Assembly: GCA_026645815.1 (NCBI GenBank)
Contig: JAPKMR010000007.1
Span: forward strand, 25,317 to 89,316
Direction: 5' to 3'
Length of the DNA stretch: 64,000 bases
From: Anaerolineae bacterium
GTDB lineage: Bacteria; Chloroflexota; Anaerolineae; B4-G1; SLSP01
Shown here: piece by piece, positions 29,855-61,725 of the stretch
Numbering within the stretch: the first letter of the stretch is position 1
Layout: each line of letters opens with the position of its first letter
Notes under the pieces: generated by a model
What the model was told of the DNA's origin: nothing
Seen by the model: only the letters and a program-made list of their open reading frames with translations
Databases searched by the model: none
Position numbers and translations under genes: made by a program

Positions 29855-30033
29855 ATCGAGGATTATACCTGAAGTACGTATTTCGTTTCAGGTTTGGCAG
29901 GGCGATGTAGGTTGGGTGACTGCATGACTAATCTGCTATTTGTTTGCAGTTGTGTGGGCGTGGGCATTTCTGTCTGGCTGTAGCTGTGATAAGATACTGT
30001 TTTGTAACTTCAGAGTGCTTCAGGAGGTGGGGC

Positions 30034-37130: not shown

Positions 37131-38933
37131 TCACTCTTCTTCCGTCCTATCTTCCTCACGGAGCTGTCGTTGATAGATTTCCGTGTATAGCCCAGAACTG
37201 CGGAGAAGTTCTGCGTGAGTACCGGAGGCGGCGATGCGTCCCTTTTCCAAGACGAGAACGAGATTGGCGGCGCGAACGGTGCTGAGTCGCTGGGCGATGA
37301 CAAGGCTGGTGCGCCCCTGCATCAAATGCTCTAAAGCCAGTTGGATGAGGTGTTCAGTTTCGGTGTCAACACTTGCCAGGGCATCGTCGAGGATGAGGAT
37401 GCGTGGATCCTTGAGCAGGGCGCGAGCGATAGCAATGCGTTGCTTTTGCCCCCCGGAAAGTGTCGTGCCGCGCTCTCCAACACGGGTGGCGTAGCCTTCC
37501 GGTAATTCTTGAATAAACTCATGGGCCTGTGCGGCTTCTGCCGCGGCGAAAATCTCTGCGTCAGTGGCGTCAGGCTTTCCAAATGCCAGGTTCTCGCGGA
37601 TGCTGGCAGCAAAGAGCGTGGTCTCCTGCAACACGATACCGATTTGATCGCGCAATGATTTCAAGGTTACATCGCGAATATCGTGGCCATCAACCGTGAT
37701 GCGTCCTGTTGTGGGGTCGTAGAAACGTGGTAGCAGGTTGATGATGGTTGACTTCCCTGAGCCAGTTGCGCCCAGGAGCGCGATTACCTGCCCGGGTTGT
37801 GCTTCAAAGCTGACCCCGTTAAGGACCTTGTGGCGTCCAAAGTAGGCAAAAGAGACGTTGTCGAAACGTATGTTTCCGCGCACGGGGGGCAGGGCAATTG
37901 CGTTGGGTGCGTCGTGTACTTCCGATTGAGCATCCAGGATCTCGAAAACGCGCTCGCCAGAGGCGATGGCTTGCACGACTGCCGGCAAAATCATTCCGAG
38001 GCGCCGCACCGGTTGTACTAATTGACCCAAATAAGCGGTGAAAGCAACCATTTCGCCAAGCGTGAGTTGCCCCCGAATGACGAGTGACCCCCCGTACCAG
38101 AGAATCAGTACCGTTCCCACATTTGCCAATAGCTCAATGAGCGGCATGGTGCGGGCGCGCATAGCCGCAGCTTGAGTCGAAAGTTTGAACCATGCCAGAT
38201 TATCGGCTTCAAAGCGGGTGATCTCGGCGCGCTCTTGGGCAAAGGCTTTGACGATGCGCGCTCCGCGAAGATTCTGTTCCAGGCGGGTGGTGAGCACTGC
38301 GAGTTGGTCTTGGATATCACGCGAGAGGGGACGGAAACGTCGCCCAAAATCCCAGGCGCGATAGGCGACAAGGGGCATTGTTCCCAAAGCGAGGAGCGCC
38401 AACCCGGGATTCATCTGCAGCATGACTACAGCTGTGCTGATGAGCAAAGTGCTACCTTCAAGGAGGCGCAGAGCGGCACGTCCGGTCAGGAAACGGAGGC
38501 GTTCAACATCCTGGATAGCACGCGAGAGTAATTGTCCTGTTTCTGTGCGATCGTGATACGAGAAAGATAACGCCGATAGCTTGCTGTGCAACGCTTTGCG
38601 GAGGTCATAAGCGGCGCCTTGCGAGCCAATTTCGATCCAGCGTCCCTGATAATAGGTAAGAACGCTTTTGAGTAGGGCTAAGCCCAATAAGACCAGTGTA
38701 GCCGTGGTGAGGAAACTGAGATTTTGTGCCCGGATACCTTCATCCACGATACGGCGGATGAATTGTGGAATGAGCATGATCAGGATATTGATGAGGGCGA
38801 GCAGAATGTAAGCGCCTGCAACATAACGGCGGTAATTGCGCAAGTACCCAAAACACCGTCGCAGAATGCGTCCCGCGCCAGGCGTCTGCGCCAGTAGAGG
38901 AATAGTCTCAGTTTGATCTTTTTCAGTTGTCAT
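37131..38933 (-). CDS. ABC exporter, fused TMD-NBD (heterodimer partner 1, degenerate site)
   Basis: GATGSGKS, LSGGQKQ, Walker B LDDA and AQR switch typical of TM287-like degenerate subunits. Confidence 0.92.
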   Translation of the reverse strand: MTTEKDQTETIPLLAQTPGAGRILRRCFGYLRNYRRYVAGAYILLALINILIMLIPQFIRRIVDEGIRAQNLSFLTTATLVLLGLALLKSVLTYYQGRWIEIGSQGAAYDLRKALHSKLSALSFSYHDRTETGQLLSRAIQDVERLRFLTGRAALRLLEGSTLLISTAVVMLQMNPGLALLALGTMPLVAYRAWDFGRRFRPLSRDIQDQLAVLTTRLEQNLRGARIVKAFAQERAEITRFEADNLAWFKLSTQAAAMRARTMPLIELLANVGTVLILWYGGSLVIRGQLTLGEMVAFTAYLGQLVQPVRRLGMILPAVVQAIASGERVFEILDAQSEVHDAPNAIALPPVRGNIRFDNVSFAYFGRHKVLNGVSFEAQPGQVIALLGATGSGKSTIINLLPRFYDPTTGRITVDGHDIRDVTLKSLRDQIGIVLQETTLFAASIRENLAFGKPDATDAEIFAAAEAAQAHEFIQELPEGYATRVGERGTTLSGGQKQRIAIARALLKDPRILILDDALASVDTETEHLIQLALEHLMQGRTSLVIAQRLSTVRAANLVLVLEKGRIAASGTHAELLRSSGLYTEIYQRQLREEDRTEEE

Positions 38934-38967
38934 GCGATCCTATATCATGGTTGACGGCTTCTTAAAT

Positions 38968-38986
38968 TACTTAACTAGGCTAAGTA
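38968..38986. promoter_or_regulatory. Palindromic operator-like site upstream of the ABC exporter pair
   Basis: TACTTA-ACTAGGC-TAAGTA. Confidence 0.4.
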
Positions 38987-39225
38987 TATCATAATCGGAG
39001 AAAATGTCACTAGCTAAGTGGTATTTGACAGGATTGTAGAATCGGTTGAAAATATAGGCAGTGGCAGCTCCTGAAGATTTCGTGTTGGAGTGGTGCTGTG
39101 TACCCTATGTACTTGTGTTCTTCCTTGCATGCGTATGATTTGCGTATAGAATTGAGTATATAGGTGTAGTGGGACCCTCTTCCCCTGGTGTCTGCTTTGT
39201 TTGAAAGGGGTGTGTCAGATTTGCT

Positions 39226-39510
39226 ATGAACGTAGTCGTAGAATTTGCGGGCATTTCCCGCGTGTTGACTGGCGTCCGTGACTTATCCTATTCCTTGGAA
39301 CCTGATACCTCTTACCGGGATCTGATCTGCCAACTTGGAATCCGCTTTCCAGCATTGGTTGGAGTGGTAATCACTCCTGACGGTGATACGTTGCTTCCAG
39401 AAAATAAAATTGCGCTCAACGGAAAGCGTATGATTCAGGATTCTGAAATGGATACATTCCTGAATGATGGCGATCGCCTTACGTTAATGTCAATTTTGGC
39501 TGGTGGCTGA
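39226..39510 (+). CDS. MoaD/ThiS-family sulfur carrier
   Basis: Ubiquitin-like size, LNDGDRL, C-terminal AGG; directly upstream of an AOR gene. Confidence 0.88.
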   Translation: MNVVVEFAGISRVLTGVRDLSYSLEPDTSYRDLICQLGIRFPALVGVVITPDGDTLLPENKIALNGKRMIQDSEMDTFLNDGDRLTLMSILAGG

Positions 39511-39571
39511 ATATCCTTAACTGCGCTGGCATGCATTGTGAACCCTATTTTAATAACCGGGAGGTTCTTTT

Positions 39572-41458
39572 ATGTACGGTTACAGTGGCAAAATCCTTCA
39601 CATTGATCTGAATACTCGCAAAACATGGACTGAGGAAAAACCAGAAGCCTGGTACAAGCTGTACATTGGCGGTGTCTCAATGGCGGCGCGACTGCTTTGG
39701 GAAAACATCGAGGTGGGCTGCGATCCGCTTTCTCCTGGCAATCCTATCTGCATCGCCAACGGTATTTTTGCCGGCACGCCGGTGCCTGTCGGCGGCAAAT
39801 ATGGATTGGCCTCCAAGTCCCCGTTGACGGGTTTGATTGGCGATAGCCTTTCGGGTAGCTGGTTTTCTGTAGCTCTCAAGCGCACCGGTTGGGATGGTTT
39901 GGTCGTTCATGGCGCCAGCGACAAGTGGATCACGATATTCATTGATGATGAGCGGGTGCAATTCCGTGATGCCAAGAAACTGTTGGGTTTGGGCACCTAC
40001 GCCACGGAGGAAGCCATCCGCGAGGAGCTTGGTGATGATCAGGTACGCTCCGCCACTATTGGCCCAGCGGGGGAGAACGGGGTACTTTTCGCCAACGTGA
40101 CCAACGATGGGCGTCAGGCGGGGCGCACGGGGCATGGCGCGGTATGGGGATCTAAGAAGATCAAGGCGATTTCCGTGCGCGGCACGAAAGGTGTGGTGGT
40201 AGCCGATCCAGATACCTTGCTGCAGATGTCCTTTGATATCTCCGAGACTTCGCAGGGACCTTATACGGTGAAGTATCGAATGTTGGGCACGGCGACCAAC
40301 GTGCTCAATATGAACAAACTCGGCTTGTTGCCCACGCGCAACTACCAGGAAGGCACATTTGAGGATGCCGAGCTGGTGAGCGGCGAGTATCTCGAGGAAC
40401 ATTACAAGGTGAAGAAGATTGCGTGCGCGCAATGTCCTATCGCCTGCGAGCAGATGTCCGCAGCCCCGGATGGTCCTTATAAGGGGGCGATGACGGGAAT
40501 CGAGTACGAGTGTCTTTATGCCAACGGTCCAAATTTGGGCATCAACGACCTTCGCGCCGTCATCAAGCTTATCGCAACCTGCGATCAGGGCGGTATGGAT
40601 GCTATGAGTGGCGGTGTGACTGTTTCCTGGGCGATGGAGACTTTCGAGCGTGGCGTCTTCACCAAAGAGGATTTCAAGTGCGCCAAGTATCCAGAGGGTT
40701 TCGAGCCGTACTTTGGTAATGCCGAGGCGGCAGTGACCCTCATGGAGATGATTCGCGACCGGGAAGGTATTGGCGACTTGCTCTCGAAGGGGACGCGTCG
40801 CGCCAGCGCCATTGTGGATGCGGAGCGTGGCACTGAGACCTATAAGTGGGCGATGAATAGCAAGGGCTTGGAAAGCCCCGGCTATGATGCGCGCGGGCTC
40901 AAGACGTTTTCTGTGGGTATCGCCGTGGGAACGCGTGGCGGTTGTCACAACCGTACTGCGGCTTACGACCCAGATATCCAGGGCGAGGTGGATCGCTTCT
41001 CAATTGATGACACGCGCGGCAGGTTAGCTGCCAGCAGTGAGGAATATGCTGCTGTCTACGACACGTTGCCGCTGTGTAAATTCATCCGCCGTTGCTTTAC
41101 CGGTAAGGCGGACCGCGCCGGCGCCTGGCCCGCCATTGCCAAACTCATCAATGCTACTACCGGTTGGGACTTCGGTTACGATGATGTGGAGCTTATCGGC
41201 ATTCGTGCGCATACCATCAAGAAGGCCTTCAATATCCGCGAGGGGTGGAAGCGTGCTGATGATGATTTGCCATATCGCTGGAAGCACGACCCTATGACCA
41301 AAGGCGCTTCCGCGGGGCATGTGGTCACCGATGAAGAGCTGGAGTATCTCAAGGACCTCTACTACGCGGCTAAGGGCTGGACCAATGAAGGGCTGATTCC
41401 TAAGGCGAAGCTCATTGAACTGGGGATGGACGATGTCGCCGAGGCAATCGGTGTTTAG
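39572..41458 (+). CDS. aor: W/Mo-dependent aldehyde:ferredoxin oxidoreductase family protein
   Basis: YGYSGKILHIDL, KSPLTG, IGPAGEN, GRTGHGAVWGSK, CAQCPIAC, EYE, DQGGMD, RGGCH. Confidence 0.93.
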   Translation: MYGYSGKILHIDLNTRKTWTEEKPEAWYKLYIGGVSMAARLLWENIEVGCDPLSPGNPICIANGIFAGTPVPVGGKYGLASKSPLTGLIGDSLSGSWFSVALKRTGWDGLVVHGASDKWITIFIDDERVQFRDAKKLLGLGTYATEEAIREELGDDQVRSATIGPAGENGVLFANVTNDGRQAGRTGHGAVWGSKKIKAISVRGTKGVVVADPDTLLQMSFDISETSQGPYTVKYRMLGTATNVLNMNKLGLLPTRNYQEGTFEDAELVSGEYLEEHYKVKKIACAQCPIACEQMSAAPDGPYKGAMTGIEYECLYANGPNLGINDLRAVIKLIATCDQGGMDAMSGGVTVSWAMETFERGVFTKEDFKCAKYPEGFEPYFGNAEAAVTLMEMIRDREGIGDLLSKGTRRASAIVDAERGTETYKWAMNSKGLESPGYDARGLKTFSVGIAVGTRGGCHNRTAAYDPDIQGEVDRFSIDDTRGRLAASSEEYAAVYDTLPLCKFIRRCFTGKADRAGAWPAIAKLINATTGWDFGYDDVELIGIRAHTIKKAFNIREGWKRADDDLPYRWKHDPMTKGASAGHVVTDEELEYLKDLYYAAKGWTNEGLIPKAKLIELGMDDVAEAIGV

Positions 41459-41479
41459 TTGATGGATTAGGAGCGACTA

Positions 41480-41971
41480 ATGACAACTTCAACTTCAAAG
41501 TATAAATATATCACGTGCGATCCCGAGTTGTGCATCGGTTGTCAGCTGTGTGAGTATATTTGCTCTTACACGAAGACAGGGGAGTACAACACCTATCGCA
41601 GTCGCATTCGCACAATCCGGGCAGAGGAGATTCTCATTACTGCTGTCGCTTGCCGTACCTGCGAGAATGCGCCTTGCGTCATCGCTTGCACTCGCGATGC
41701 TCTCACGCAGGATCCCGAGACCGGCATCATTCATATCAATGCGGAGCGCTGTGATGGTTGCGCCTGGTGCATCGAGGCTTGCGATTTTGGGGCGATTTCT
41801 ATCAATCCAGCAACTAAACTGGCGGAAATCTGTGATCAGTGTGAAGACCTTGAGGATGGACCGCAGTGTGTCAAGTGGTGTCCGAAAGATGCTCTGGAAC
41901 TCACAACCCCTGATCAGCGTGCTCAACGCGCCCGTCGTAAGCTGGCGAAAGAAGACGTGCTTGGGATGTAG
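41480..41971 (+). CDS. 4x[4Fe-4S] electron-transfer subunit (AorB/DmsB/CooF-like)
   Basis: CIGCQLCEYIC, CRTCENAPCVIAC, CDGCAWCIEAC, CDQC...PQCVKWCP. Confidence 0.9.
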   Translation: MTTSTSKYKYITCDPELCIGCQLCEYICSYTKTGEYNTYRSRIRTIRAEEILITAVACRTCENAPCVIACTRDALTQDPETGIIHINAERCDGCAWCIEACDFGAISINPATKLAEICDQCEDLEDGPQCVKWCPKDALELTTPDQRAQRARRKLAKEDVLGM

Positions 41972-42080
41972 TGCAGGGACAAGAGAACGAAAAACGATAC
42001 TGTAAAAAAAAGGCGAGTGGACGATGGGCGCGTGGGGGCAGCGTTACATTCGCCTTTTTCTGTGATAAGGAGCGCAATCT

Positions 42081-44741
42081 GTGGCTAAGACAACACGTGA
42101 AATAGATTACGAAAATGATCCGCCGCGTATTGGCGTCTATGTATGCCATTGCGGGTCCAATATTGCCAGCGTCATAACGCCTGCGGAGGTCGTGGACTAC
42201 GCTAAGAACCTGCCCGGTGTGGTAGTTGCTAAGGAACATCGTTATGCCTGCTCTGATCCGGGACAGAGTATGATTCAGCAAGATATCAAAGAATACGGTT
42301 TGAATCGTGTGGTAGTGGCTGCGTGTAGTGTTGCCATGCACGAACCGACCTTCAAAGCGTGTATCGCCGATGCGGGGCTCAATCCCTTCATGTTCCAGAT
42401 GGCAAATATCCGCGAGCACTCCTCGTGGGTGCATTCCCATGAGAAGGCAGCTGCTACCGAAAAGGCCAAGGAACTTGTCGCATCGGCGGTGGCCAAGGTA
42501 ACTTATGTGCACCCACTGGAGATGTTTGAGGTGCCGGTGACGCGCCGCGCATTGATTATTGGGGGTGGCATTGCCGGTATCAGTGCGGCGCTTGATTTGG
42601 CAGATATGAATATTGAGACCTATTTGGTGGAGAAAACGCCCACCATCGGCGGGCGGATGGCGCAGCTGGACAAGACTTTCCCCACCATGGACTGCTCTAT
42701 CTGCATTGAAGCGCCGAAGATGGTAGATGTGGGCAAGAATCGCAACATTCATATCCTGAGCTATTCTGAAGTTAAGGAAGTCAATGGCTATATCGGCAAC
42801 TTCACGGTGAAGATCGAACGCAAGCCACGTTATGTATTAGAAAGCAAGTGTACCGGCTGCGGCCTTTGTGCTGAAGTTTGTCCCATTGATGTGCCCAATG
42901 TTTTCGAGGAGGGCTTGGGTCCCCGCAAAGCCATCTACGTGCCCATGGCGCAGGCAGTGCCTTCGATTTACACCATTGACATGGATGCCTGCATCAAGTG
43001 TTTTAAGTGTGTGGATGCCTGTGGCGCGCTCAGTGCCATTGACTTCGCGCAACAACCGGAGATTGTCGAGCTTGAGATCGGCGCCATTATCGTTGCTACG
43101 GGTTACGATACGTGGGACCCCTCGGAAATCGAGGAATATGGTTTTGGCGTTTATGAGAACGTGACGACGATGATGGAGATTGAGCGGTTGCACTGCGCGG
43201 GAGGTCCAACGGTGGGTGAATTTGTACGCCCATCCGATGGCAAAGTGCCCAAGAATCTGGCACTGATCCAGTGCGTGGGTTCGCGAGACAAGCGTTATCA
43301 CGAATACTGTTCCGGCTTCTGCTGCATGTACACAATCAAGAACGCGATGCTGCTCAAGTGGCTTTATCCGGAGATGGACATCACTATTTTCCGTATTGAT
43401 ATCCGCACACCCGGAAAAACCTATGAGGAATTCTACGAGCGCGCACGGGAAGCGGGTATTCACTTCATTCAGGGGCGCCCTTCGGAGATTGTGCAGGATC
43501 CGATCACCAAGAATTTAATTGTCCATGCTGAGAACATTGCCACCGGGCGCCATGTGGCGCTTGAAGTAGAGATGGTGGGGTTGGCAAACGCTGCCGTTCC
43601 TTCGGAAGGCTCTTTTGATTTAGGTCGCGTTTTGACGGTGCCGAACGATACCCACGGTTGGTTCATGGAATCCCATCCCAAGCTGAAGCCGCTGGATACG
43701 CCCACCGAGGGCATCTATCTGGCGGGTTCGACGCAGGGTCCCAAGGACATCCCCCAGAGTGTGAGCCAGGGTAGTGGTGCGGCGGGACGTGCCTCACGGG
43801 TGCTGAATGCGGCGACATGGGAGATTGATCCCATCATTGCCTATGTGGACCCCGAGCGCTGCATCAATTCCCGCGGTGGCAAGTGCGACATTTGTTATCG
43901 CGCTTGCCCTTATGGTGCAGTCATCAACCTGCCAGGAACGGGGCAACCTTCGAGTATCATCCCGGCGAAATGCCATGGTTGTGGCACGTGTGTTGCAGAG
44001 TGTCCCCAGAACGCGATTTCACAGCACCACTTCACCGATGGACAGATTGTGGCGCAATTGCATGCGTTGTTGGCGGAAAAACCGGAGGAGAAGGTGATTG
44101 CCTTCACCTGCCGCTGGTGCAGCGGCATGGGCGCCGATAACGCCGGAACGAGCCACTTTGAGTATCCTGCGAACACGCGGAATATTCTGGTTATGTGCGC
44201 CGGGCGTGTGGATGCGGACTTCGTCATGGAGGCGTTCCGGCTTGGAGCCGGCGCGGTGCTGGTTTCAGGTTGTCACCCACAGGACTGCCACTACATTTCC
44301 GGACGTAACTTTGCCGAGACCCGCATTACGCGGCTCTTTGGGCAGTTGGAAAAACTGGGCATCTCACCAGGGCGCTTTCGTTTGGACTCGGTCTCGGCTA
44401 CAGAGGGTGCCAAGTGGGCGCGCATCATGCGTGAGATGAGCACTGTGATCCAGGAGTTGGGACCGGAAGGGGTACGTGCAGAAAATGAGAAGGCCCTGCC
44501 TCAACTCACCAAGCGTTTGGCGCGGATGCGCGAGGTGCCTGAGGTAGGCTACTTCATGCGCCTCGTTGAAGGCGCGCCGCTCAAAGACGCTGAAACTGGG
44601 GTGCAACAAGCGCGTGATAAGGGATTGAGCCAGACAGTGGCGGTGACAGAATGCCAGCTGCCAGAGGTGACTGCTTGTGATGCCTGTCAACTTGCCGCAG
44701 CCTGCGCACCCGAAACAAAACAGGCGAAAGGAGGCAAGTGA
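42081..44741 (+). CDS. hdrA: Heterodisulfide reductase subunit A fused to an MvhD [2Fe-2S] domain
   Basis: RIGVYVCHCGSNI, ANIREH, GGGIAG, QLDKTFPTMDCSIC, QCVGSRD, CSGFCC, HPKLKP; C-terminal MvhD (AFTCRWC, VMCAGRV, GCHPQDCHY). Confidence 0.95.
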   Translation: MAKTTREIDYENDPPRIGVYVCHCGSNIASVITPAEVVDYAKNLPGVVVAKEHRYACSDPGQSMIQQDIKEYGLNRVVVAACSVAMHEPTFKACIADAGLNPFMFQMANIREHSSWVHSHEKAAATEKAKELVASAVAKVTYVHPLEMFEVPVTRRALIIGGGIAGISAALDLADMNIETYLVEKTPTIGGRMAQLDKTFPTMDCSICIEAPKMVDVGKNRNIHILSYSEVKEVNGYIGNFTVKIERKPRYVLESKCTGCGLCAEVCPIDVPNVFEEGLGPRKAIYVPMAQAVPSIYTIDMDACIKCFKCVDACGALSAIDFAQQPEIVELEIGAIIVATGYDTWDPSEIEEYGFGVYENVTTMMEIERLHCAGGPTVGEFVRPSDGKVPKNLALIQCVGSRDKRYHEYCSGFCCMYTIKNAMLLKWLYPEMDITIFRIDIRTPGKTYEEFYERAREAGIHFIQGRPSEIVQDPITKNLIVHAENIATGRHVALEVEMVGLANAAVPSEGSFDLGRVLTVPNDTHGWFMESHPKLKPLDTPTEGIYLAGSTQGPKDIPQSVSQGSGAAGRASRVLNAATWEIDPIIAYVDPERCINSRGGKCDICYRACPYGAVINLPGTGQPSSIIPAKCHGCGTCVAECPQNAISQHHFTDGQIVAQLHALLAEKPEEKVIAFTCRWCSGMGADNAGTSHFEYPANTRNILVMCAGRVDADFVMEAFRLGAGAVLVSGCHPQDCHYISGRNFAETRITRLFGQLEKLGISPGRFRLDSVSATEGAKWARIMREMSTVIQELGPEGVRAENEKALPQLTKRLARMREVPEVGYFMRLVEGAPLKDAETGVQQARDKGLSQTVAVTECQLPEVTACDACQLAAACAPETKQAKGGK

Positions 44742-45418
44742 TGGCAAACGTACTGAATCCCTTCGTCGTTGAACTATCGGGACGGCGTGGCGGGGATAAG
44801 GTGCTGCAATGTTATCAGTGCGGTACTTGCTCGGGTTCCTGCCCGGTGATTGATGAGATGGAATACGGTCCGCGCCGCATCTTGAACATGATTCAGATGG
44901 GAGAAGAAGCGCGCGTACTTTCCAGCCACGATATGTGGTTCTGTGTCTCATGTTATTCCTGTGCAAGCCGTTGCCCTCGTGAGATTCCTATCACCGAGCT
45001 AATGGCGACGTTGCGTGAGATGGCGGTAGAGAAAGGCTATGCTGAGGACCTTGAGGCTGAGTTTGGGCAATCGTTTGCCGAGACCTTCAAGCATTATGGG
45101 CGGCTTTTTGAGCCGGAATTGATGATTCGTTACTACCTGCGCACCTTTGATATCAAGGGATTGTTGGGGATGATTCCCCTGGCGTTGCCGATGGTGTTGA
45201 AAGACAAACTGCCTTTCTTCCCCGAGCGGGTGAAGGAGCCTGCGCACATGACGGCGCTTTGCCCCGAGCCACATGATGCGCCACCAAAGGCGGCAACGCG
45301 CCGGAAACCGCGCTGGTTGCCCTGGTTGGCGAGCGGCGTAACCCTGCTTCTGGCTGCGGGCATGAGCAGCGTCTTTTGGCGTTCTACGTCGCGACGCTCA
45401 AAGGAGGCTCGGCGATGA
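44738..45418 (+). CDS. hdrC: Heterodisulfide reductase subunit C with a C-terminal hydrophobic helix
   Basis: CYQCGTCSGSCP and WFCVSCYSCASRCP; tail WLPWLASGVTLLLAAGMSSVFW. Confidence 0.9.
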   Translation: MMANVLNPFVVELSGRRGGDKVLQCYQCGTCSGSCPVIDEMEYGPRRILNMIQMGEEARVLSSHDMWFCVSCYSCASRCPREIPITELMATLREMAVEKGYAEDLEAEFGQSFAETFKHYGRLFEPELMIRYYLRTFDIKGLLGMIPLALPMVLKDKLPFFPERVKEPAHMTALCPEPHDAPPKAATRRKPRWLPWLASGVTLLLAAGMSSVFWRSTSRRSKEARR

Positions 45419-46263
45419 AATACGGTTATTATCCCGGATGTAGTTTGCTTTCCAGCGCCAAGGAATACGATGCCTCATTGCGGTTGAGCTTTGCAGAACT
45501 GGGCATTGAGTTAGTGGAGTTGGAAGATTGGAATTGCTGTGGTGCGGTGCATGGCGAGGGAAAGGGCGTGATTGCGCTTCCGGCGCGTAACCTGGCGCTG
45601 GCAGAGGTTCAGGGCTTGGATACCATTATCGCACCATGCAGCGGGTGCTATCGCAACCTGCGCCGAGCGAGTCAGGCAGTCGAGAAAGATAAGGCAACGC
45701 GCCAGATGGTCAACGAGAGCCTGGCTGAAGGATTGCAGCTCAAGGGAAATATCCGGGTGTTGCACCCGCTCTATGTGCTGTTGCAGGAGTATGGCCTGGA
45801 GCAGGTTAAGCAGCGGGTTACACACCCGCTTAAAGGGATGAAAGTAGCAGCTTATTACGGCTGTATGCTAACCCGTCCCAAGGATGAATTCGACAGCACT
45901 GAGCGCCCGCAGGGATTGGACGATTTCCTTGATGTTCTAGGAGCGGAACCCGTAGATTATCCTTTCAAGGCTAAGTGTTGTGGTGGGGCATTGGCAATCT
46001 CACACAGCGGAGTGACTGCGAAGCTCACCGGGAAGGTGCTTGATTCGGCGAAGACAGCTGGCGCAGATGCTGTGACCCTGGCATGTCCCATGTGTCATAC
46101 AGCTCTGGACCTCTATCAGAGCAAAGCTGAGGCCGCTGTGGGTCACGATTTGGATTTGCCGGTGTTGTACTTCACCCAGCTGTTGGGCCTGGCTCTGGGG
46201 ATAGAAGCGTCTCGGCTGGGTTTCAAACGCCATATTGTCTCTCCGGCGCGGCTTGGGTTATAA
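45415..46263 (+). CDS. hdrB: Heterodisulfide reductase subunit B (two CCG domains)
   Basis: YYPGCS, WNCCGA, PCSGC, YYGC, CCGG, ACPMC, LPVLYFTQL. Confidence 0.93.
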   Translation: MKYGYYPGCSLLSSAKEYDASLRLSFAELGIELVELEDWNCCGAVHGEGKGVIALPARNLALAEVQGLDTIIAPCSGCYRNLRRASQAVEKDKATRQMVNESLAEGLQLKGNIRVLHPLYVLLQEYGLEQVKQRVTHPLKGMKVAAYYGCMLTRPKDEFDSTERPQGLDDFLDVLGAEPVDYPFKAKCCGGALAISHSGVTAKLTGKVLDSAKTAGADAVTLACPMCHTALDLYQSKAEAAVGHDLDLPVLYFTQLLGLALGIEASRLGFKRHIVSPARLGL

Positions 46264-46274
46264 GGAGCTCTACA

Positions 46275-47237
46275 ATGCGACGTGGTGCTACAGTAAAAAC
46301 CAAAACAGAGCAAAAGATTGTCCTCGACCGCAAGATGGTCACCTTGCATCATACGCAGACCTGGGACCTTGAACGCTGCGTGGGTTGCCAGATTGGTCCC
46401 CTCGTCTGTCCCAAGGATGCGATCAGCCATGTGCCGGCAGTCTTGGAAAATGGGCGGTTGAAGCAAAAGGCTTCGGTGGATATTGATCCCGAGAAATGCG
46501 TTTTTTGTGGCATGTGCAGTGTCATGTGCCCGACAAATGCTATCACTATGGTGGTTAATGGCAAAGAGGAAGCCCCAGTGCAAAAGTACGAAGCCTTCCC
46601 TTTGTTGATCGAATCCAACAAGTTCAATCGTGATGCTTTCGATATGAGCCGCAAGGATTTCGTGATTGAGAACTGTCCCACAGATGTGATCAGCTACGAT
46701 GCAAAGGCGGATACACTAAAAGTGGATCAGAAGTATTGCATCCGCTGCCGGCAATGTGAGGTCGCGAGCGATGGCGCATTCACGGTGGTGCAGCCATGGC
46801 AAGGTAGTGTGACTCTGCGGCGCGAGTTGTGTGTGGAGGGGTGTCTTGCCTGCGCCGATATCTGTCCCACGCGCGCGCTACACATTGACGAGAATGGGGA
46901 CCTGGCATTGGCGGATTATTACTGCATTAAGTGCGGCGCCTGTATGCAGGTTTGCCCAATAAAGGCTGCAGTCGAGCCTTATGAGGTGCCTTTTGAGTAC
47001 GCCGGTACAACGTATACTCGCCAGCATGAGCGCATCACCAATCTTGATGAATTGCCCATCGTGGTAGAACGCTGGCGTGTTGGTCATACGGAAGTTCAGA
47101 GCGGTTCCTGGGTCGCGGCGTTGATTCGCCTGGCAGATGATAAGGCTGGCGCGACGGAGATTGATCGAAAACGCGCGCTCAAGCGACGGGATTTGCTCAC
47201 TGCACTTAAGGGTGGGCGTTCACTGCTAGATAAGTGA
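46275..47237 (+). CDS. Polyferredoxin, FwdF/FmdF-like
   Basis: Six ferredoxin-type motifs (three degenerate); linkers ITMVVNGK...FP, VVQPWQG and terminal VER...SW..AL..L recall archaeal FwdF. Confidence 0.7.
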   Translation: MRRGATVKTKTEQKIVLDRKMVTLHHTQTWDLERCVGCQIGPLVCPKDAISHVPAVLENGRLKQKASVDIDPEKCVFCGMCSVMCPTNAITMVVNGKEEAPVQKYEAFPLLIESNKFNRDAFDMSRKDFVIENCPTDVISYDAKADTLKVDQKYCIRCRQCEVASDGAFTVVQPWQGSVTLRRELCVEGCLACADICPTRALHIDENGDLALADYYCIKCGACMQVCPIKAAVEPYEVPFEYAGTTYTRQHERITNLDELPIVVERWRVGHTEVQSGSWVAALIRLADDKAGATEIDRKRALKRRDLLTALKGGRSLLDK

Positions 47238-47267
47238 GCCTTGTGGTTGGCTTAGAGTGACTTTCTG

Positions 47268-47303
47268 ATTTTTCGCGGCGGGGTTTTACCCGCCGCGAAA
47301 AAT
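47268..47303. terminator. Strong hairpin ending the aor-hdr operon
   Basis: ATTTTTCGCGGCGGG-GTTTTA-CCCGCCGCGAAAAAT. Confidence 0.7.
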
Positions 47304-47358
47304 TGTTTCTTTCCGACGATTACCCCTGGCATGATATGTATCCGCGCGGGATTCTCAT

Positions 47359-47387
47359 TTGTCCTTCCACCTAAACAGCTCTATAAT
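47359..47387 (+). promoter_or_regulatory. Probable leaderless promoter for nuoA
   Basis: TTGTCC-17 bp-TATAAT, then 7 bp to the ATG at 47395; no Shine-Dalgarno. Confidence 0.55.
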
Positions 47388-47394
47388 CCGCCTT

Positions 47395-47751
47395 ATGTCT
47401 GACCAATATGGTTTTGTAGTGATTTTTTTCTTACTAACGGCAGCTTTTGCTGTTGCGCCAGTGGCGCTGGCGTGGATTCTCAGCCCCAAGAAATCCAGCT
47501 CGCGCAAGCGCGAGACTTATGAGAGCGGTCTTCGCACCTTTGGTAAAACCTGGATCGAGTTCAAACCCCAGTATTATCTTTATGCGCTGGCGTATGTGGT
47601 TTTTGGGGTGGAGGCAGTGTTGTTGCTGCCCTGGGCTGTTGCCTATGCTTTTTTGCCCTTTTATGCTGTGGCTGAAGCCACCCTGTTTCTATTGCTTCTG
47701 GGTTTTGGCCTGGTATACGTCTGGAAGAAGGGTTGGCTTCACTGGATGTAA
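47395..47751 (+). CDS. nuoA: Complex I-like subunit A
   Basis: Three TMs, K.ETYESG, YYLYAL..VVF.VE...L.PWA, WKKGWL.W. Confidence 0.9.
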   Translation: MSDQYGFVVIFFLLTAAFAVAPVALAWILSPKKSSSRKRETYESGLRTFGKTWIEFKPQYYLYALAYVVFGVEAVLLLPWAVAYAFLPFYAVAEATLFLLLLGFGLVYVWKKGWLHWM

Positions 47752-47789
47752 CCTGACTGTGCGGCAGAAGCTGCGAGAATTATCGGTTA

Positions 47790-48923
47790 ATGACCATGCC
47801 TATCTATCTCCGTTATGCCCTGAATAGCCTGATCCTGTTGGCAACCCCGTTTGTCTCGGTGCTGATCCTTATTTGGGTGGCTCGCAAGGTCATTGCGCGG
47901 ATGCAGGACCGTCTGGGCCCCAACAACTCGGGGACTTGGGCCGGTCCGTATGCTTTATTCCAGACGCTCGCGGACGCTATCAAGATTCTCACCAAGGAGT
48001 TGATCATTCCTGAAGGTGCAGACCTGTGGGTCTTTTTGGCAGCGCCAATGGTGGTTTTGGGTTCGGCGCTGCTGGTGTGGTTGGTCATTCCCTTCAGCCC
48101 CACTTTGCAGGGAATGGATCCCGATGTTGGCATTTTCTATGTGGTTGTGATCACGCCGTTTGCGCTTTTTGCCATGATTATGGCTGGATGGAGTTCCCGC
48201 AACAAATATGCGGCTTTGGGAACTTTCCGGGCGGTGGCGCAAATTATCAGTTATGAGATTCCTCAATTCCTCTCGTTGCTAATTCCGATTATGCTCACCG
48301 GGTCGCTCTCATTGCAGCATCTAGTCCTGGCGCAACAATTGCCATTTGCATTAGTGCTGCCCATTCCCGCATTGATTTATTTCCTGGCGATGACAGCAGA
48401 AGTGGGGCGGTTGCCGTTCGAGCAGGCAGAGGCGGATGCGGAGATTGTTGCCGGTTACTTTACTGAGTATAGCGGGATGATGTTCGGGTCTTTCTATCTG
48501 GCGGAATTTATCAACAACTTCTCGGTCTCCTTGATTTTCGCGACAATCTTCCTTGGCGGTTGGCGCGGTCCTTGGGTGATGGACATCCCTATTTTGGGAC
48601 CGGTCTGGCTATTGCTAAAGGGATTTTTGGTTTTCCTGGTGTTGATGTTGTTTTGGGGGGCCATGCCACGGCTCCGCATTGATCAGATTCTGAATATCAA
48701 TTGGAAATTCCTGACTCCCCTGGCGCTGGTGATGCTCATTGTGGTGGCATGGGTCAACCGGCTTGCCTTCGACCAGGGCGCCACAACCCTCGTGGCGCGG
48801 GCACCCTGGTTATTTGCGGCAAACCTTGTTGTCGGATTAATAACCATTGGCTTACTGAAGTTGAGTTCGCGGCGCGCGCAGCTCCGTAGGGACGCACAGA
48901 GTTTTGAGCTGCTTCGTGAGTGA
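47790..48923 (+). CDS. nuoH: Complex I-like subunit H
   Basis: RMQDRLGPN, ADAIKILTKE, AQIISYE, RLPF...EA..E.VAGYFTEYSG, PRLRIDQ. Confidence 0.93.
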   Translation: MTMPIYLRYALNSLILLATPFVSVLILIWVARKVIARMQDRLGPNNSGTWAGPYALFQTLADAIKILTKELIIPEGADLWVFLAAPMVVLGSALLVWLVIPFSPTLQGMDPDVGIFYVVVITPFALFAMIMAGWSSRNKYAALGTFRAVAQIISYEIPQFLSLLIPIMLTGSLSLQHLVLAQQLPFALVLPIPALIYFLAMTAEVGRLPFEQAEADAEIVAGYFTEYSGMMFGSFYLAEFINNFSVSLIFATIFLGGWRGPWVMDIPILGPVWLLLKGFLVFLVLMLFWGAMPRLRIDQILNINWKFLTPLALVMLIVVAWVNRLAFDQGATTLVARAPWLFAANLVVGLITIGLLKLSSRRAQLRRDAQSFELLRE

Positions 48924-48930
48924 TGCGGTC

Positions 48931-49449
48931 ATGAGGTTTGATGTGAGCTTTGGATTTGAGCAAATTGCCTTTCTACTTACGGCGGTAGTGACGTTGGCTG
49001 CTGCACTGGCGATGGTGTTCTCGCGCCAGGTCTTCCATGCGATATTGCTGATGATTGCGGTTTTCGTCGGGGTGGCGACGCTTTATGTTTTGTTGGGCGT
49101 CTCTTTCATGGCGGGAATGCAGTTATTCATCTACGTAGGAGGCGTGTCGGTATTGGCGGTTATCGCCATTATGGTGACCCGTGGCTTTATGGGGAGTGAC
49201 CGCCCGCGGCCCGCTCGCACTACCTATGGGGCTGCTATCGTTGCCGGGAGTGTTTTCATCGGCTTGGCCTGGCTGATTCTGCGCGTGCCCTGGCCTGCGG
49301 TTCCGCTCGTGGCTGCTTCGGCGAATGATCTTGCACTTTTGGGACAGGTGCTGGTATCTCGAGCCGGATTTGTAGTCCCCTTTGAATTATCCTCGCTATT
49401 GCTTTTTGTTGTGTTGTTGGGGGCGCTTTACATTGCCCGGGAGCGTTGA
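48931..49449 (+). CDS. nuoJ: Complex I-like subunit J
   Basis: QLFIYVGGVSVL, VPFELSSLLL; start codon uncertain (48904/48931/48943). Confidence 0.88.
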   Translation: MRFDVSFGFEQIAFLLTAVVTLAAALAMVFSRQVFHAILLMIAVFVGVATLYVLLGVSFMAGMQLFIYVGGVSVLAVIAIMVTRGFMGSDRPRPARTTYGAAIVAGSVFIGLAWLILRVPWPAVPLVAASANDLALLGQVLVSRAGFVVPFELSSLLLFVVLLGALYIARER

Positions 49450-49450
49450 A

Positions 49451-49759
49451 ATGGTGCCTCTTTCGTGGTACTTACTTTTAGCTGCTGCATTATTCTCTAT
49501 TGGCCTGTATGGCATTCTGGCACGGCGTAATCTGGTGATGATTCTGATGTCTCTGGAGCTGCTTTTGAATGCCGTCAACATCAACCTGATTGCCTTCTCG
49601 CGATATCTGGAGGAGGGGCAGATAGTCGGACGTGTTTTTGCGTTGTTTGTTTATGTGGTTGCTGCCGCCGAGACTGCTCTGGGGCTTGCGATTATGATTG
49701 CTGTCTGGCGCACGCACCAAACTGTTGCTGTAGACGAAATTGATGCATTGAAGGGTTAA
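49451..49759 (+). CDS. nuoK: Complex I-like subunit K
   Basis: RRNLVMILMSLELLLNA, VAAAETALGLAI. Confidence 0.93.
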   Translation: MVPLSWYLLLAAALFSIGLYGILARRNLVMILMSLELLLNAVNINLIAFSRYLEEGQIVGRVFALFVYVVAAAETALGLAIMIAVWRTHQTVAVDEIDALKG

Positions 49760-49763
49760 CTTG

Positions 49764-51986
49764 ATGTCTGGGAATATCGCCTGGTTGATACCCTTATTTC
49801 CATTGCTCGCCTTCGCTGTGATTTTGTTAGCAACGCAGCGATACGCGCGATTGAGCCTCTGGTTGGCAATTGGAGGCATCGCTGCCGCATTTTTGCTGGC
49901 GCAACTTGTTTTCTGGGCGGCGGTGCTTAACGCCCTGGAACTCTCCAATCTGGGAGCGTTATCCTGGCTTATCAACGGCGGCGATGTCACTGCTTTGGGG
50001 ATAATCCTCGATCCGCCAGCGTTGATCATGCTGTTTATGGTTCCGCTGGTTTGCCTGATGATCTTCATTTATAGCACAGGCTATATGCGCGGTGATCCGC
50101 ATTATGGGCGTTTCTTCGCGTATATCTCTCTTTTTGCTGCTGCCATGCTGGGACTGGTTCTTTTCGATAACCTGCTGGCTTTCTTTGTCTGCTGGGAATT
50201 GATGGGGCTGTGCTCCTATCTGCTGATTGGCTTTTGGTGCGAGCGCCCAACCGCCGCTGCGGCGGGGTTAAAAGCCTTCTTGGTGACCAAGGTGGGCGAT
50301 CTGTTCTTCTTCCTTGGGTTGATGGTGCTCTATGCAACTACCGGATCGCTGGCGTATCGCGATCTCTTTGCGCCTGAGACGCTGGCACAATTAGCTCAGT
50401 CTGGCTACCTGGGTTTGCCTGTGACGCCGGCGTTGGTGATTGCCCTGCTCCTATTCGGTGGCACGGTGGGCAAGAGCGCTCAGTTCCCGCTACATATCTG
50501 GCTTCCGGATGCCATGGCAGGCCCTACGCCAGTCTCTGCTCTGATTCATGCGGCAACCATGGTTTCTGCAGGCGTTTTCTTGCTGGTGCGAATGTTCCCT
50601 TTGCTGGCGGTAGCCGGATTGCCATTGCCAGCGATTGCGTACATCGGTGCTTTCACCGCACTTTTTGGAGCACTGGTGGCGCTAGGGCAAAACGATGTCA
50701 AGCGGGTGCTCGCCTTCTCTACGATGAGTCAGCTGGGGTATATGGTGGCGGCTTTAGGGCTAGGCGCTTACGCGGCAGCATTCTTCCACTTGTTTACACA
50801 TGCTTTTTTTAAGGCCTTGCTCTTCCTTGGCGCAGGGTCAGTGATTCATGGGATGGAGCATGGTCATCATCATAGCGGCGCTGAGGGCCAATTTGACCCT
50901 AACGATTTGCTCGCCATGGGGGGATTGCGTCATGCAATGCCGCGCACCTTTGCAACGTTTCTTATCGGGGGGCTTTCTCTGGCGGGTTTCCCCTTGTTCA
51001 CGGCGGGATTTTGGTCGAAGGATGAAATTCTGGCGCAGGCTTTCGGGCGGAACCCGGTCATCTTTTGGGTGCTGGCGACTGCTGCCTTGCTTACGGCTTT
51101 CTACACCGCCCGTCAGATTAGTCTGATGTTCTTAGGTTCGCCCCGCTCTGAATCTGCGACGCATGCACGGGAGAGTAACCGTGCTATGACTACGCCGTTG
51201 TGGATTCTGGCGGGATTTGCGATTGTGCTCGGATGGGCTGGGGTCCCGGAACATTTCCCCGTGCTGGGTGGCGTTATTCCTAACTGGTTTGACAACTTTG
51301 TTGGGGTTCCAACCTCACCGCTTTTTGAACTGCCGGAGTTGTCGTCCGCTCTTCACGCGTGGCAACCATTAGCCGCCGGAGCGGGCGCCTGTTTGCTTGG
51401 GTTGGCTTTGGGGTGGGTGGTCTATGGTTGGCGCCCGTTGGCGGCAGGTGCGCCTGATCGGATCGCGGTTGGGTTGGGACGTCTTCGTTTAGGTTGGTTC
51501 TATAAGGCACTGCAGGAGCGTCTCTACTTCGATTGGCTCTATCAACGGACCATCGTTTGGGGAACTTTGGCTTTGGCAGGACTTTCCGCACGTTTTGATG
51601 ATGGCGTCCCCGATGGCGCTGTGCGGGGTGTGGCAACCACAGTACGCGCTCTTGCGGCATTGGCTGCGGGTTTCGATGATAAGGTTGTAGACGCGTTTGT
51701 GAATTTTTGGGCGACTTTTGCCCGTTGGGTGGCGCGGAGTCTCAACTGGCTCGATTTGCACCTGGTGGACCCGGTGATCAACTTTGCCGGTTGGTTGGGA
51801 CAGTTAGGTCCTTGGGCAACCGGCTCTGTAGAACCGGAGGTGCCCGATGCCCCAGTCGGCCCCATCCCACGCCTATTGACGCGTGTGGGAAGCGCCTTGA
51901 GCGCTTTGCAGACAGGCGAGGTACAGGATTATCTGGGATTTGCTTTCTTCGCTGCTATTGCGTTGACTGTCGCCTTTCTGCTGTGA
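49764..51986 (+). CDS. nuoL: Complex I-like antiporter subunit L with a greatly extended lateral helix
   Basis: WELMG, GKSAQFPLHIWLPDAM, SALIHAATMV, HAFFKALLFL, FWSKD, QTG.VQ.Y. Confidence 0.95.
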   Translation: MSGNIAWLIPLFPLLAFAVILLATQRYARLSLWLAIGGIAAAFLLAQLVFWAAVLNALELSNLGALSWLINGGDVTALGIILDPPALIMLFMVPLVCLMIFIYSTGYMRGDPHYGRFFAYISLFAAAMLGLVLFDNLLAFFVCWELMGLCSYLLIGFWCERPTAAAAGLKAFLVTKVGDLFFFLGLMVLYATTGSLAYRDLFAPETLAQLAQSGYLGLPVTPALVIALLLFGGTVGKSAQFPLHIWLPDAMAGPTPVSALIHAATMVSAGVFLLVRMFPLLAVAGLPLPAIAYIGAFTALFGALVALGQNDVKRVLAFSTMSQLGYMVAALGLGAYAAAFFHLFTHAFFKALLFLGAGSVIHGMEHGHHHSGAEGQFDPNDLLAMGGLRHAMPRTFATFLIGGLSLAGFPLFTAGFWSKDEILAQAFGRNPVIFWVLATAALLTAFYTARQISLMFLGSPRSESATHARESNRAMTTPLWILAGFAIVLGWAGVPEHFPVLGGVIPNWFDNFVGVPTSPLFELPELSSALHAWQPLAAGAGACLLGLALGWVVYGWRPLAAGAPDRIAVGLGRLRLGWFYKALQERLYFDWLYQRTIVWGTLALAGLSARFDDGVPDGAVRGVATTVRALAALAAGFDDKVVDAFVNFWATFARWVARSLNWLDLHLVDPVINFAGWLGQLGPWATGSVEPEVPDAPVGPIPRLLTRVGSALSALQTGEVQDYLGFAFFAAIALTVAFLL

Positions 51987-52062
51987 GAGGGTGTTTTGAA
52001 GGGGCAGTTCTTTGCTTTGATTTTTTACACTTGCTGGTAAGTTCTTTGATAGAGGTCAGGCT

Positions 52063-53577: not shown

Positions 53578-53587
53578 AGGGAGCCTC

Positions 53588-61506: not shown

Positions 61507-61725
61507 ATGATGAATCGTGGACAGGGTGGTGGTAGTGGCGGTGGTCGTGGCGGCGGCGTGGGGCGTGGGCGAGGTTTAGGCCCCGGACGTGGTGGCGGTA
61601 CGGCAGCTGGTCCCGGAGGTGTTTGCGTTTGTCCGGCTTGTGGGCATCGTGAGTCACACGTGCCCGGACAGCCCTGCACCAGTAGAGTTTGTCCTGAATG
61701 CGGAACGCGGATGATTCGGGAATGA
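61507..61725 (+). CDS. Small Gly/Arg-rich protein with a Cys-rich metal-binding C-terminus
   Basis: GRGRG-rich N-terminus; AGPGGVCVCPACG...H..G.PC....CPECG. Confidence 0.8.
   Translation: MMNRGQGGGSGGGRGGGVGRGRGLGPGRGGGTAAGPGGVCVCPACGHRESHVPGQPCTSRVCPECGTRMIRE

Follow-up and report, generated by a model that had tools for sequence, protein, structure and literature searches.

A conserved gene cluster of Anaerolineae places a predicted aldehyde oxidoreductase beside HdrA and an exchangeable middle module

A 64,000-nucleotide stretch of an Anaerolineae genome (contig JAPKMR010000007.1 of assembly GCA_026645815.1, positions 25,317 to 89,316 of the forward strand; hereafter the window) carries a block of seven co-oriented genes on the + strand, spanning 39226–47237, in which a predicted aldehyde oxidoreductase (AOR), WorLS, stands beside an HdrA::MvhD fusion, HdrC- and HdrB-like proteins and a polyferredoxin. 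The linkage of worLS to hdrA is not a matter of chance and is found again in dozens of species. Taking gene content, homology and comparative genomics together, we infer a mechanism for the encoded proteins, and tentatively favour, at just under an even chance, a single multi-subunit enzyme in which a PfAOR-type WorLS would be electrically connected, as the input, to the bifurcating flavin of HdrA::MvhD. The block had been described in an original prediction, made from the letters of the window, as moaD–aor–4×[4Fe-4S]–hdrA::mvhD–hdrC–hdrB–polyferredoxin, and we recover all seven genes at the positions it gave. They are listed here with the two flanking signals.

39226–39510, + strand: MoaD/ThiS-like gene, 94 amino acids with a Gly-Gly C-terminus (Pfam ThiS, 26.8 bits).
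39572–41458, + strand: worL, the AOR gene, 628 amino acids (P0001; AFOR_N 239 bits and AFOR_C 360 bits).
41480–41971, + strand: worS, 163 amino acids (P0004; Fer4_11; 16 cluster cysteines).
42081–44741, + strand: hdrA::mvhD fusion gene, 886 amino acids (P0002; HdrA with a C-terminal FlpD/MvhD domain).
44738–45418, + strand: hdrC-like gene, 2×[4Fe-4S] (Fer4_8/Fer4_17; TIGR03290).
45376–46263, + strand: hdrB-like gene with two CCG domains (Pfam CCG, 81 bits).
46275–47237, + strand: polyferredoxin gene, 320 amino acids (P0003; top NCBIfam match FwdF).
47266–47305, + strand: intrinsic-terminator-like hairpin of 17 pairs, 9 of them G-C, with a 6-nt loop and a T-rich tail.
39025–39053, + strand: candidate promoter-like site, TTGACA-17-GAAAAT, weak, with 10 of 12 consensus matches.

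The genes are closely packed. Overlaps join hdrA to hdrC, where the junction reads TGATG with GGAGG 7 nt upstream, and hdrC to hdrB, where it reads ATGA at 45415–45418 with AGGAGG upstream; the probable translation start of hdrC is ATG 44741, overlapping the hdrA stop, and that of hdrB is most likely ATG 45415, given the ATGA junction and the AGGAGG and in agreement with an alignment to PDB entries that begins at residue 14. The remaining gaps measure 61 nt (moaD/worL), 21 nt (worL/worS), 109 nt (worS/hdrA) and 11 nt (hdrB/polyferredoxin). The closing hairpin is the strongest terminator-like site in 38800–47500, the remaining + strand sites having 5–7 pairs. The candidate promoter site sits in the 292-nt gap 5′ of the moaD-like gene; matches to this consensus are common (13 seen against 6.5 expected). 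Neither the operon nor the scanned flanking open reading frames (from ~29.9 kb on) hold mvhAG, fdh, flx or fwd catalytic genes, and WorABC genes (BfuABC-type; NuoE/F/G-like) are likewise absent from the operon and the scanned flanks. The overlapping junctions, the closing hairpin and the lack of mvhAG, fdh, flx and fwd catalytic genes had all been noted in the original prediction and were borne out, the last within the part scanned.

WorL is predicted to be the large subunit of a tungsto(molybdo)pterin aldehyde:ferredoxin oxidoreductase. Its AFOR_N and AFOR_C matches lie far over the cut-offs and span the full length, which places it in the AOR/WOR family. Compared with all solved structures, it is closest to PfAOR (1aor, 376 bits over residues 1–620), with further matches to 9mqx_D (310 bits), which we take to be Acetomicrobium WorL, and to AorB (301 bits); this placement among characterised AORs is one of bit scores against solved structures, not of a tree. 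In the phmmer alignment to 1aor_A, the [4Fe-4S] cysteines 288, 291, 295 and 494 (PfAOR numbering) are aligned and identical, as are Thr243, Glu313, Tyr427 and His448, residues given as typical of aldehyde-oxidising WOR members in section 5 of PMC13328260. WorS is closest to 9mqx_E (86.6 bits), the Fe-S subunit of the same entry as 9mqx_D, and then to AorA (8c0z_C, 72.6 bits). All 50 orthologues compared retain 16 cysteines, enough for four [4Fe-4S] clusters, together with a conserved basic C-terminal tail in which R147, Q149 and R152 are invariant. The MoaD-like protein, whose NCBIfam SAMP1/MoaD matches fall under the cut-off, probably serves in maturation of the pterin cofactor for the AOR.

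These comparisons also speak to the idea that the locus encodes a variant of class II benzoyl-CoA reductase (BCR), with WorL as a BamB-like aromatic ring reductase. As BCR has been described, the two have in common an AOR-family subunit, a small Fe-S subunit and HdrA/MvhD-like parts. BamB (4z3w_A), however, is the lowest of the nine solved WorL relatives, at 171 bits and only over N-terminal residues 2–424; WorL conserves the aldehyde-type residues; WorS carries four clusters against three in BamC; and the locus contains neither a BamB-type subunit nor the BamGHI module with an HdrD-like BamD. We reject the variant on the sequence of WorL and on gene content, and give it next to no chance of being right. 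The grouping of the AOR with BamB, which the original prediction had named as an outcome that would overturn it, is thus not seen.

The Hdr subunits belong to the HdrABC family without reaching the level of assigned specificity. HdrA aligns with methanogen HdrA (5odc_A) at 820 bits over residues 14–663, and beyond that point MvhD chains match residues 669–802, with the MvhD/FlpD domain at 672–794. The FAD-binding GGGIAG and the DCSIC motif (C205, C208) are invariant in 28 of 28 sequences, as are Cys 677, 680, 706, 731 and 736 of the fused MvhD, so that the FAD site, the Cys/Sec pair near the flavin and the Fe-S domains of an HdrA are all in place. HdrB matches 8rvv_B, 8rvu_b and 5odc_B at 158–164 bits with both C...CCG...CxxC sets aligned; the two CCG motifs hold ligands of the two non-cubane clusters, and with HdrC they are expected of the HdrABC family. 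All three NCBIfam models stay below their cut-offs: HdrA2, whose HdrA–MvhD fusion architecture the window protein shares, scores 1025.7 bits for the whole model over residues 16–797 (cut-off 1100), HdrB (TIGR03288) 194.7 bits (cut-off 345) and HdrC (TIGR03290) 97.7 bits (cut-off 160). The CoB–CoM heterodisulfide equivalog level is therefore not reached and, with FwdF likewise under its cut-off, we regard these proteins as family members without an assigned specificity.

The polyferredoxin finds its closest solved relatives in FmdF (7bkb_K, from the Methanospirillum Fdh–Hdr–Fmd complex, 110 bits) and FwdF (5t5i_F, 90 bits), and its N-terminal domain resembles NuoI (72.8 bits). FwdF consists of four double-ferredoxin units with eight [4Fe-4S] clusters, as described in PMC13518236. 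The window protein conserves 19 cysteines in 48 of 48 sequences, corresponding to about five clusters rather than eight, and has only two complete CX2CX2CX3C(P) motifs. On the NCBIfam FwdF model, whose cut-off is 375, it scores 106.6 bits, and no fwd or fmd genes lie nearby; at the equivalog level we reject it as a FwdF orthologue. The name FwdF in the original prediction thus picked out the right relatives but not the right orthology.

The association of these genes is widely conserved. A WorL orthologue (at least 75% identity) is present in 25 of 40 relatives, and in 22 of those an HdrA orthologue lies on the same contig, 0.6–4.4 kb away; in G008 and G017 WorL sits at a contig end and in G033 WorL and HdrA are on separate contigs. 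For a broader view, eight aligned WorL sequences served as the query against a single genome of each species, and we took the best 80 of 266 relatives, all at least 76% identical. WorS is found in 78 of the 80 loci and a MoaD-like gene upstream of worL in 71. Where 3.5 kb or more of sequence is available downstream, HdrA follows worLS in 60 of 62 loci; the polyferredoxin is present in 49 of the 51 with at least 8 kb, the two others (L052 and L070) having it pushed past the examined flank. The recurrence of aor, hdr and polyferredoxin genes elsewhere, proposed in the original prediction as a check, came out in its favour among these relatives. Among the loci in which hdrA was not seen, L029 has a WorL identical to that of L036, where a 4.4-kb insertion intervenes, and L040 is the sister of L052, in which 8.5 kb of unrelated genes are inserted ahead of hdrA.

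In phylogeny, too, the Hdr-linked WorL stands apart. The 81 rows with this linkage form one clade against six outgroup representatives with SH-like support of 100 (FastTree, 87 rows), and the closest other representative at 50%-identity clustering is only 45% identical to WorL. Orthologues of at least 72% identity are confined to the same class in a 401-genome sample of the phylum. None of eight Chloroflexota loci with a WorL of 40–50% identity has Hdr or polyferredoxin genes nearby, and this WorL is present once in each of the genomes searched. Two clusters, L029 and L084, sit in metagenome-assembled genomes (MAGs) labelled Pseudomonadota and Desulfobacteraceae, labels that probably reflect binning errors rather than transfer.

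Another account is two enzymes in one operon: WorLS would be an ordinary ferredoxin-linked AOR, HdrA–HdrCB–polyferredoxin a separate ferredoxin-dependent enzyme, and the two would be co-regulated through a shared ferredoxin pool. Stand-alone WorLS-type enzymes do exist, as Classes II and III in the description of PMC13328260. Insertions of 3–8.5 kb part worS from hdrA in L013, L035, L036, L052, L066 and L070, and L083 (with 3.4 kb of downstream sequence), possibly with L085 and L086, shows no hdrA in the 1.5–3.4 kb available downstream. The linkage in 60 of 62 informative loci argues the other way, as does its survival through at least ten changes of the middle module (below); this WorL clade occurs only with HdrA, its nearest relatives (at most 50% identity) occur without it, and WorL is single-copy per genome searched. 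We consider two separate enzymes quite unlikely. The inserted genes themselves are varied: that of L013 (L013:8239–11202) holds an AAA_35 ATPase and a PRC-barrel protein, and that of L052 (L052:12646–20938) a PIG-L gene, a glycosyltransferase and four open reading frames without Pfam matches.

Between hdrA and the polyferredoxin gene, the 80 loci differ in what they carry.

HdrC plus HdrB, the type of the window: 31 of 80 loci.
Mvh [NiFe]-hydrogenase: 16 of 80 loci.
Flx-like NAD(P)H module: 10 of 80 loci, including cultured Pelolinea submarina.
HdrA seen, type of interval not resolved: 11 of 80 loci, most of which end too soon to type.
HdrA not seen: 12 of 80 loci, 10 of them with less than 3.5 kb downstream.

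In the Mvh type, an HdrC-like domain, an extra 2×[4Fe-4S] domain and a second MvhD form one polypeptide directly before mvhG; the small hydrogenase subunit is followed by the large one, which scores 385 bits to MvhA (5odc_F), and VhuA/VhuG are the top NCBIfam matches. This fusion is consistent with a hydrogenase attached to the HdrC branch. The Flx-like type, to which the complete genome of Pelolinea submarina MO-CFX1 belongs (L093), has an HdrC-like protein, MvhD, a Fer4 protein and NAD(P)H subunits resembling sulfhydrogenase beta/AsrA and gamma/AsrB. In both types HdrA keeps its own fused MvhD, and in its gene the codon for the second Cys of DCSIC (Cys208 in the window) is an in-frame TGA (for example L012:11170–11300 and L093:12497–13200), presumably read as selenocysteine; HdrCB-type lineages have Cys there. 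L094, among the 11 untyped loci, is a minimal form with an HdrC-like protein and MvhD only. All types share WorLS, HdrA::MvhD, an HdrC-like protein and the polyferredoxin. The module type changes at least ten times on the WorL tree, and there are well-supported sisters of unlike type (L072, Mvh, with L093, Flx; L057, Mvh, with L065, Flx).

The Mvh and Flx types have no hdrB, and we asked whether a disulfide reductase could be supplied from elsewhere in the genome. A genome-wide search found no CCG-domain protein in five of seven Mvh- or Flx-type genomes (G116, G282, P. submarina, a Brevefilum sp. and G445), of which two are near-complete; G116 is a single contig at 99% completeness. G442 and G444 each have one distant two-CCG protein of ~410–435 amino acids, far from the locus, and as a control the search returned matches in 12 of 14 genomes. 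An HdrB acting in trans is therefore rejected for these five genomes, and most Mvh and Flx versions work without any disulfide reductase. Those variants are left with three terminals: the aldehyde, H2 or NAD(P)H, and the polyferredoxin.

In the mechanism that we favour, the pterin site would oxidise an aldehyde to the acid, and the electrons would pass by way of WorS to the fused MvhD domain, the canonical HdrA input port, and on to the FAD, which would split each electron pair. The downhill electron would pass through HdrC to HdrB and reduce a disulfide, and the other through the HdrA ferredoxin domain to the polyferredoxin and then to ferredoxin. The downhill acceptor module would be exchangeable, with HdrB serving a disulfide, MvhAG reducing H+ to H2 and the Flx-like module reducing NAD(P)+; the window would hold the HdrCB version. 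The fusion of HdrC-like, ferredoxin and MvhD domains beside mvhG would then be the wire to the hydrogenase. With the AOR as input, all of the variants possess the full set of partners.

The energetics would suit such an exchange, since the three acceptors are nearly isopotential under physiological conditions: −281 mV for the CoM-S-S-CoB heterodisulfide (PMC13518236), about −280 mV for NAD (PMC13328260, section 11) and about −296 mV for H+/H2 at 10 Pa H2, calculated from −414 mV. With a Flx-type module, the overall chemistry would equal the reaction given for Class IV WOR in PMC12318220, 2 RCHO + 2 Fd(ox) + NAD+ → 2 RCOO− + 2 Fd(red) + NADH, for which section 11 of PMC13328260 offers the rationale that aldehyde can be oxidised at very low concentration while ferredoxin is still reduced. 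The design would likewise let fermentative Anaerolineae scavenge aldehydes to very low levels and make reduced ferredoxin. It is possible, if still short of likely, that these loci represent a modular class of tungsten enzymes in which the AOR is the HdrA-core input, possibly as a nanowire, and HdrB, Mvh and Flx are interchangeable outputs of the HdrC branch.

Several points weigh against the AOR as input to a single enzyme. The standard potential of the acid/aldehyde couple, about −580 mV, lies below that of ferredoxin, and an aldehyde could therefore act as the 'middle' donor only at very low aldehyde:acid ratios. We know of no HdrB disulfide substrate in Anaerolineae, and CoM-S-S-CoB is an unlikely one in these non-methanogenic bacteria. 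The worS–hdrA insertions mean that tight co-translation of the two halves is not obligatory. RNA-library contigs, 95–99% alike, from three runs of two studies (sludge and an anaerobic digester) cover pieces of at least six of the seven genes, and some bridge moaD/worL (39389–39669), hdrA/hdrC (44707–44929) and hdrB/polyferredoxin (45939–46567), with no bridge of worS/hdrA among the RNA-run pieces listed, although a lack of cover counts neither way; the contigs are a weak hint of expression and, with DNA carry-over possible, cannot prove a single transcript. DNA-library contigs of the same similarity also come from sludge and anaerobic-digester runs. Precedent is a further difficulty. In the only solved complex of an HdrA-like protein with an AOR-family enzyme, class II BCR, a preprint assigns BamBC to the low-potential output and the MvhD-like BamF to the input, and in methanogens, according to PMC13518236, polyferredoxins carry low-potential electrons from the HdrA ferredoxin domain to a tungstopterin enzyme. 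The window polyferredoxin, by its sequence most like FmdF, and both precedents would favour the opposite wiring.

In that wiring, WorLS would sit at the low-potential output of HdrA, reached through the FmdF-like polyferredoxin, and would reduce acids to aldehydes; HdrCB would take the high-potential electron to a disulfide, and a mid-potential donor would enter at the fused MvhD, namely H2, NAD(P)H or, for the type in the window, an enzyme encoded elsewhere. Beyond the precedents just given, methanogens swap Vhu and Fdh as inputs while polyferredoxins join the HdrA ferredoxin domain to the tungstopterin Fwd/Fmd (PMC13518236), and Mvh and Flx are inputs in all known Hdr complexes, with the Mvh large subunit here MvhA-like. 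The difficulty is that one partner is missing in each variant. The operon of the window has no input module, and MvhAG was not found in its genome, G000, where one related NiFe enzyme accompanies NuoEFG-like genes; the Mvh and Flx types lack HdrB, and five of seven such genomes lack any CCG protein, hence a high-potential acceptor. From H2 (−414 mV) or NAD(P)H, moreover, both acid/aldehyde and ferredoxin would be uphill. We regard this wiring as unlikely, though a reading to be taken seriously. It is close to the original prediction, which set the AOR in the place of Fwd in a methanogen Hdr–Fwd scheme: the conserved unit and the FmdF-like polyferredoxin hold up, and the scheme itself becomes one of two wirings, the one in which the variants leave partners missing.

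A chain without bifurcation has also to be weighed, in which electrons would run from WorS through the polyferredoxin as a wire to HdrA, acting as a one-/two-electron converter, and on to the terminal module, much as AorABC hands electrons to NAD+ by way of AorC. WorS is homologous to AorA, the reaction would be downhill to all three acceptors, and the polyferredoxin is constant in all variants. HdrA nevertheless keeps all the hallmarks of bifurcation, its DCSI[C/U] pair and its two ferredoxin-type domains among them, and a seven-protein machine exceeds the needs of linear transfer; we think this reading very unlikely.

Returning to the AOR as input, the nearest functional parallel would be Class IV WOR (WorABCSL of Acetomicrobium mobile and Eubacterium limosum), in which, as described in PMC12318220 and PMC13328260, WorL and a four-cluster WorS likewise sit on a bifurcating flavin module and the products are reduced ferredoxin and a reduced higher-potential acceptor, as we propose here. 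WorL and WorS are homologous, at 310 and 86.6 bits to 9mqx_D and 9mqx_E, and the tail of the window WorS may match the helix that, in PMC12318220, forms the nanowire and serves to dock the plug. The flavin modules differ: BfuABC-type WorABC in Class IV, HdrA(::MvhD)–HdrC(–B) here, with an additional polyferredoxin and a second acceptor that is proposed to be a disulfide, H+ or NAD(P)+ depending on the lineage. The complex may work like Class IV WOR without belonging to that class.

Class II BCR (BamBCDEFGHI of Geobacter metallireducens) is, in the published accounts, the one complex on record that unites a tungsten enzyme of the AOR family, an HdrA-like flavoprotein and an MvhD-like adaptor. 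There, the ring reductase BamB is no more than a distant relative of WorL, an HdrD-like BamD replaces separate HdrC and HdrB, and a second bifurcating module, BamGHI (HydBC/NuoEFG-like), is present that the window locus lacks; by the same accounts BCR has no polyferredoxin and uses its AOR module as low-potential output. The methanogen Hdr–(Mvh/Vhu/Fdh)–Fwd/Fmd supercomplexes (7bkb, 9sfi, 9sw6; PMC13518236) share homologous HdrA (820 bits), HdrB (~160 bits) and HdrC, an FmdF/FwdF-like polyferredoxin and a pterin enzyme, and there too the modules that join HdrA are described as exchangeable. The pterin enzyme is formylmethanofuran dehydrogenase there and an aldehyde oxidoreductase here, MvhD is fused to HdrA here, the polyferredoxin has eight clusters there and about five here, and the hydrogenase that accompanies HdrB in methanogens replaces it in the Mvh-type loci.

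AorABC of Aromatoleum aromaticum (8c0z) has AorB and AorA homologous to WorL and WorS (301 and 72.6 bits). It differs in having a simple FAD/NAD subunit, AorC, where the present loci have the whole HdrA machinery. Its operon reportedly includes MoaD-like maturation genes. Two other HdrA systems are FlxABCD–HdrABC of Desulfovibrio and HdrA2B2C2 of Methanosarcina acetivorans, the latter with a neighbouring polyferredoxin; to our knowledge neither contains an AOR. The window locus has no flx genes, and the 10 of 80 sister loci that do carry Flx-like genes have MvhD and AsrAB-like NAD(P)H subunits beside HdrA but lack HdrB.

The genome of the window comprises 4.94 Mb in 227 contigs and is 92% complete; close homologues of its proteins are labelled as Anaerolineae, Anaerolineales or Chloroflexota MAGs. 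It has six AOR paralogues, of which only this WorL adjoins hdr genes. An HdrB of the type seen in the window and this polyferredoxin each occur once, with other CCG-domain proteins elsewhere. One AOR paralogue (contig C147:36357–38204, − strand), 35% identical to WorL, has one in-frame TGA and may be either an AOR with selenocysteine or a broken gene. A second Hdr-type locus (contig C133:30530–37154; L016:4530–11154) lies just downstream of 2-oxoacid:ferredoxin oxidoreductase genes and encodes a rearranged HdrA-like protein of 1168 amino acids, which has two flavin domains and carries MvhD at its C-terminus, followed by HdrD-like (Fer4 and CCG) and EtfA/EtfB-like genes. An Mvh hydrogenase that could dock on the fused MvhD was sought in this genome and not found: the only Mvh-related enzyme (contig C39:1591–7434, − strand; L017) is 40% identical to the Mvh-type large subunit and lies in a locus where the [NiFe]-hydrogenase genes, small subunit then large, come after NuoE-, NuoF- and NuoG-like genes, a layout that resembles a NAD-linked bidirectional hydrogenase.

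Upstream, the operon is flanked by two divergent ABC exporters; downstream, past the terminator, lies a nuo cluster of the membrane arm only (47359–55081, + strand; nuoA, H, J, K, L and two further antiporter-like genes). This cluster lacks nuoB, C, D and I, and NuoD homologues are found on contigs C148 and C114. Membrane-arm nuo genes flank the WOR–Hdr cluster in 17 of 95 loci (L012, L018, L032, L039, L041, L043, L047, L049, L051, L054, L055, L060, L067, L070, L083, L085 and L086): downstream, as nuoA-H-J-K-L, in ten loci and in L032, where the series starts at nuoJ, and upstream, as nuoH...N, in six loci of other types. The adjacency may be inherited synteny or a link at the level of the pathway, with reduced ferredoxin made by one and used by the other. 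Further off in the window are a 1371-amino-acid subtilase (Peptidase_S8) with MAM-like and IPT/TIG domains (29944–34059, + strand), followed by a histone-deacetylase-family gene on the opposite strand, and two adjoining paralogues (61698–63463, + strand) that are MinD/ParA-type P-loop NTPases with inserted 4Fe-4S ferredoxin motifs.

Apart from BCR, no mention of an AOR beside or in complex with HdrABC, HdrA–Mvh or HdrA–Flx was found in the open full-text literature, the body of work covered here as distinct from subscription journals and supplements, and the claim of novelty in the original prediction stands within that scope. A 2026 classification of 4,064 WorL sequences into five classes mentions Hdr in its main text only for benzoyl-CoA reductase (PMC13328260); its Supplementary Dataset 1, which lies outside this negative, gives WorL gene neighbourhoods and may list Hdr neighbours. 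The Brevefilum genome paper, where it lists AORs, gives them as stand-alone enzymes. As far as the main text of PMC13328260 goes, the five-class WOR scheme is incomplete. The coupling of aldehyde oxidation to HdrA looks undescribed, while complexes of an HdrA-like protein with an AOR-family enzyme (class II BCR) and bifurcating WOR complexes (Class IV) are already known.

Modules known to take part in flavin-based bifurcation by HdrA are those for hydrogenase, formate dehydrogenase, F420H2 and NADH and, in one case, a ring reductase of the AOR family; coupling HdrA to an AOR that oxidises aldehydes would be new. The swap of HdrB, Mvh and Flx that nature has made on a constant core constrains how the ports of HdrA can be used. 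If the AOR is indeed the input, Mvh and Flx would run 'backwards' relative to every known Hdr complex, the loci would make up a sixth, Hdr-based class in the WOR scheme, and the version in the window would be an aldehyde:disulfide+ferredoxin oxidoreductase. A cultured and fully sequenced carrier, Pelolinea submarina MO-CFX1 (Flx type), makes the hypothesis directly testable. For fermentative Anaerolineae, such an enzyme could matter for the disposal of aldehydes from amino-acid and sugar fermentation and for the production of H2, NAD(P)H and reduced ferredoxin.

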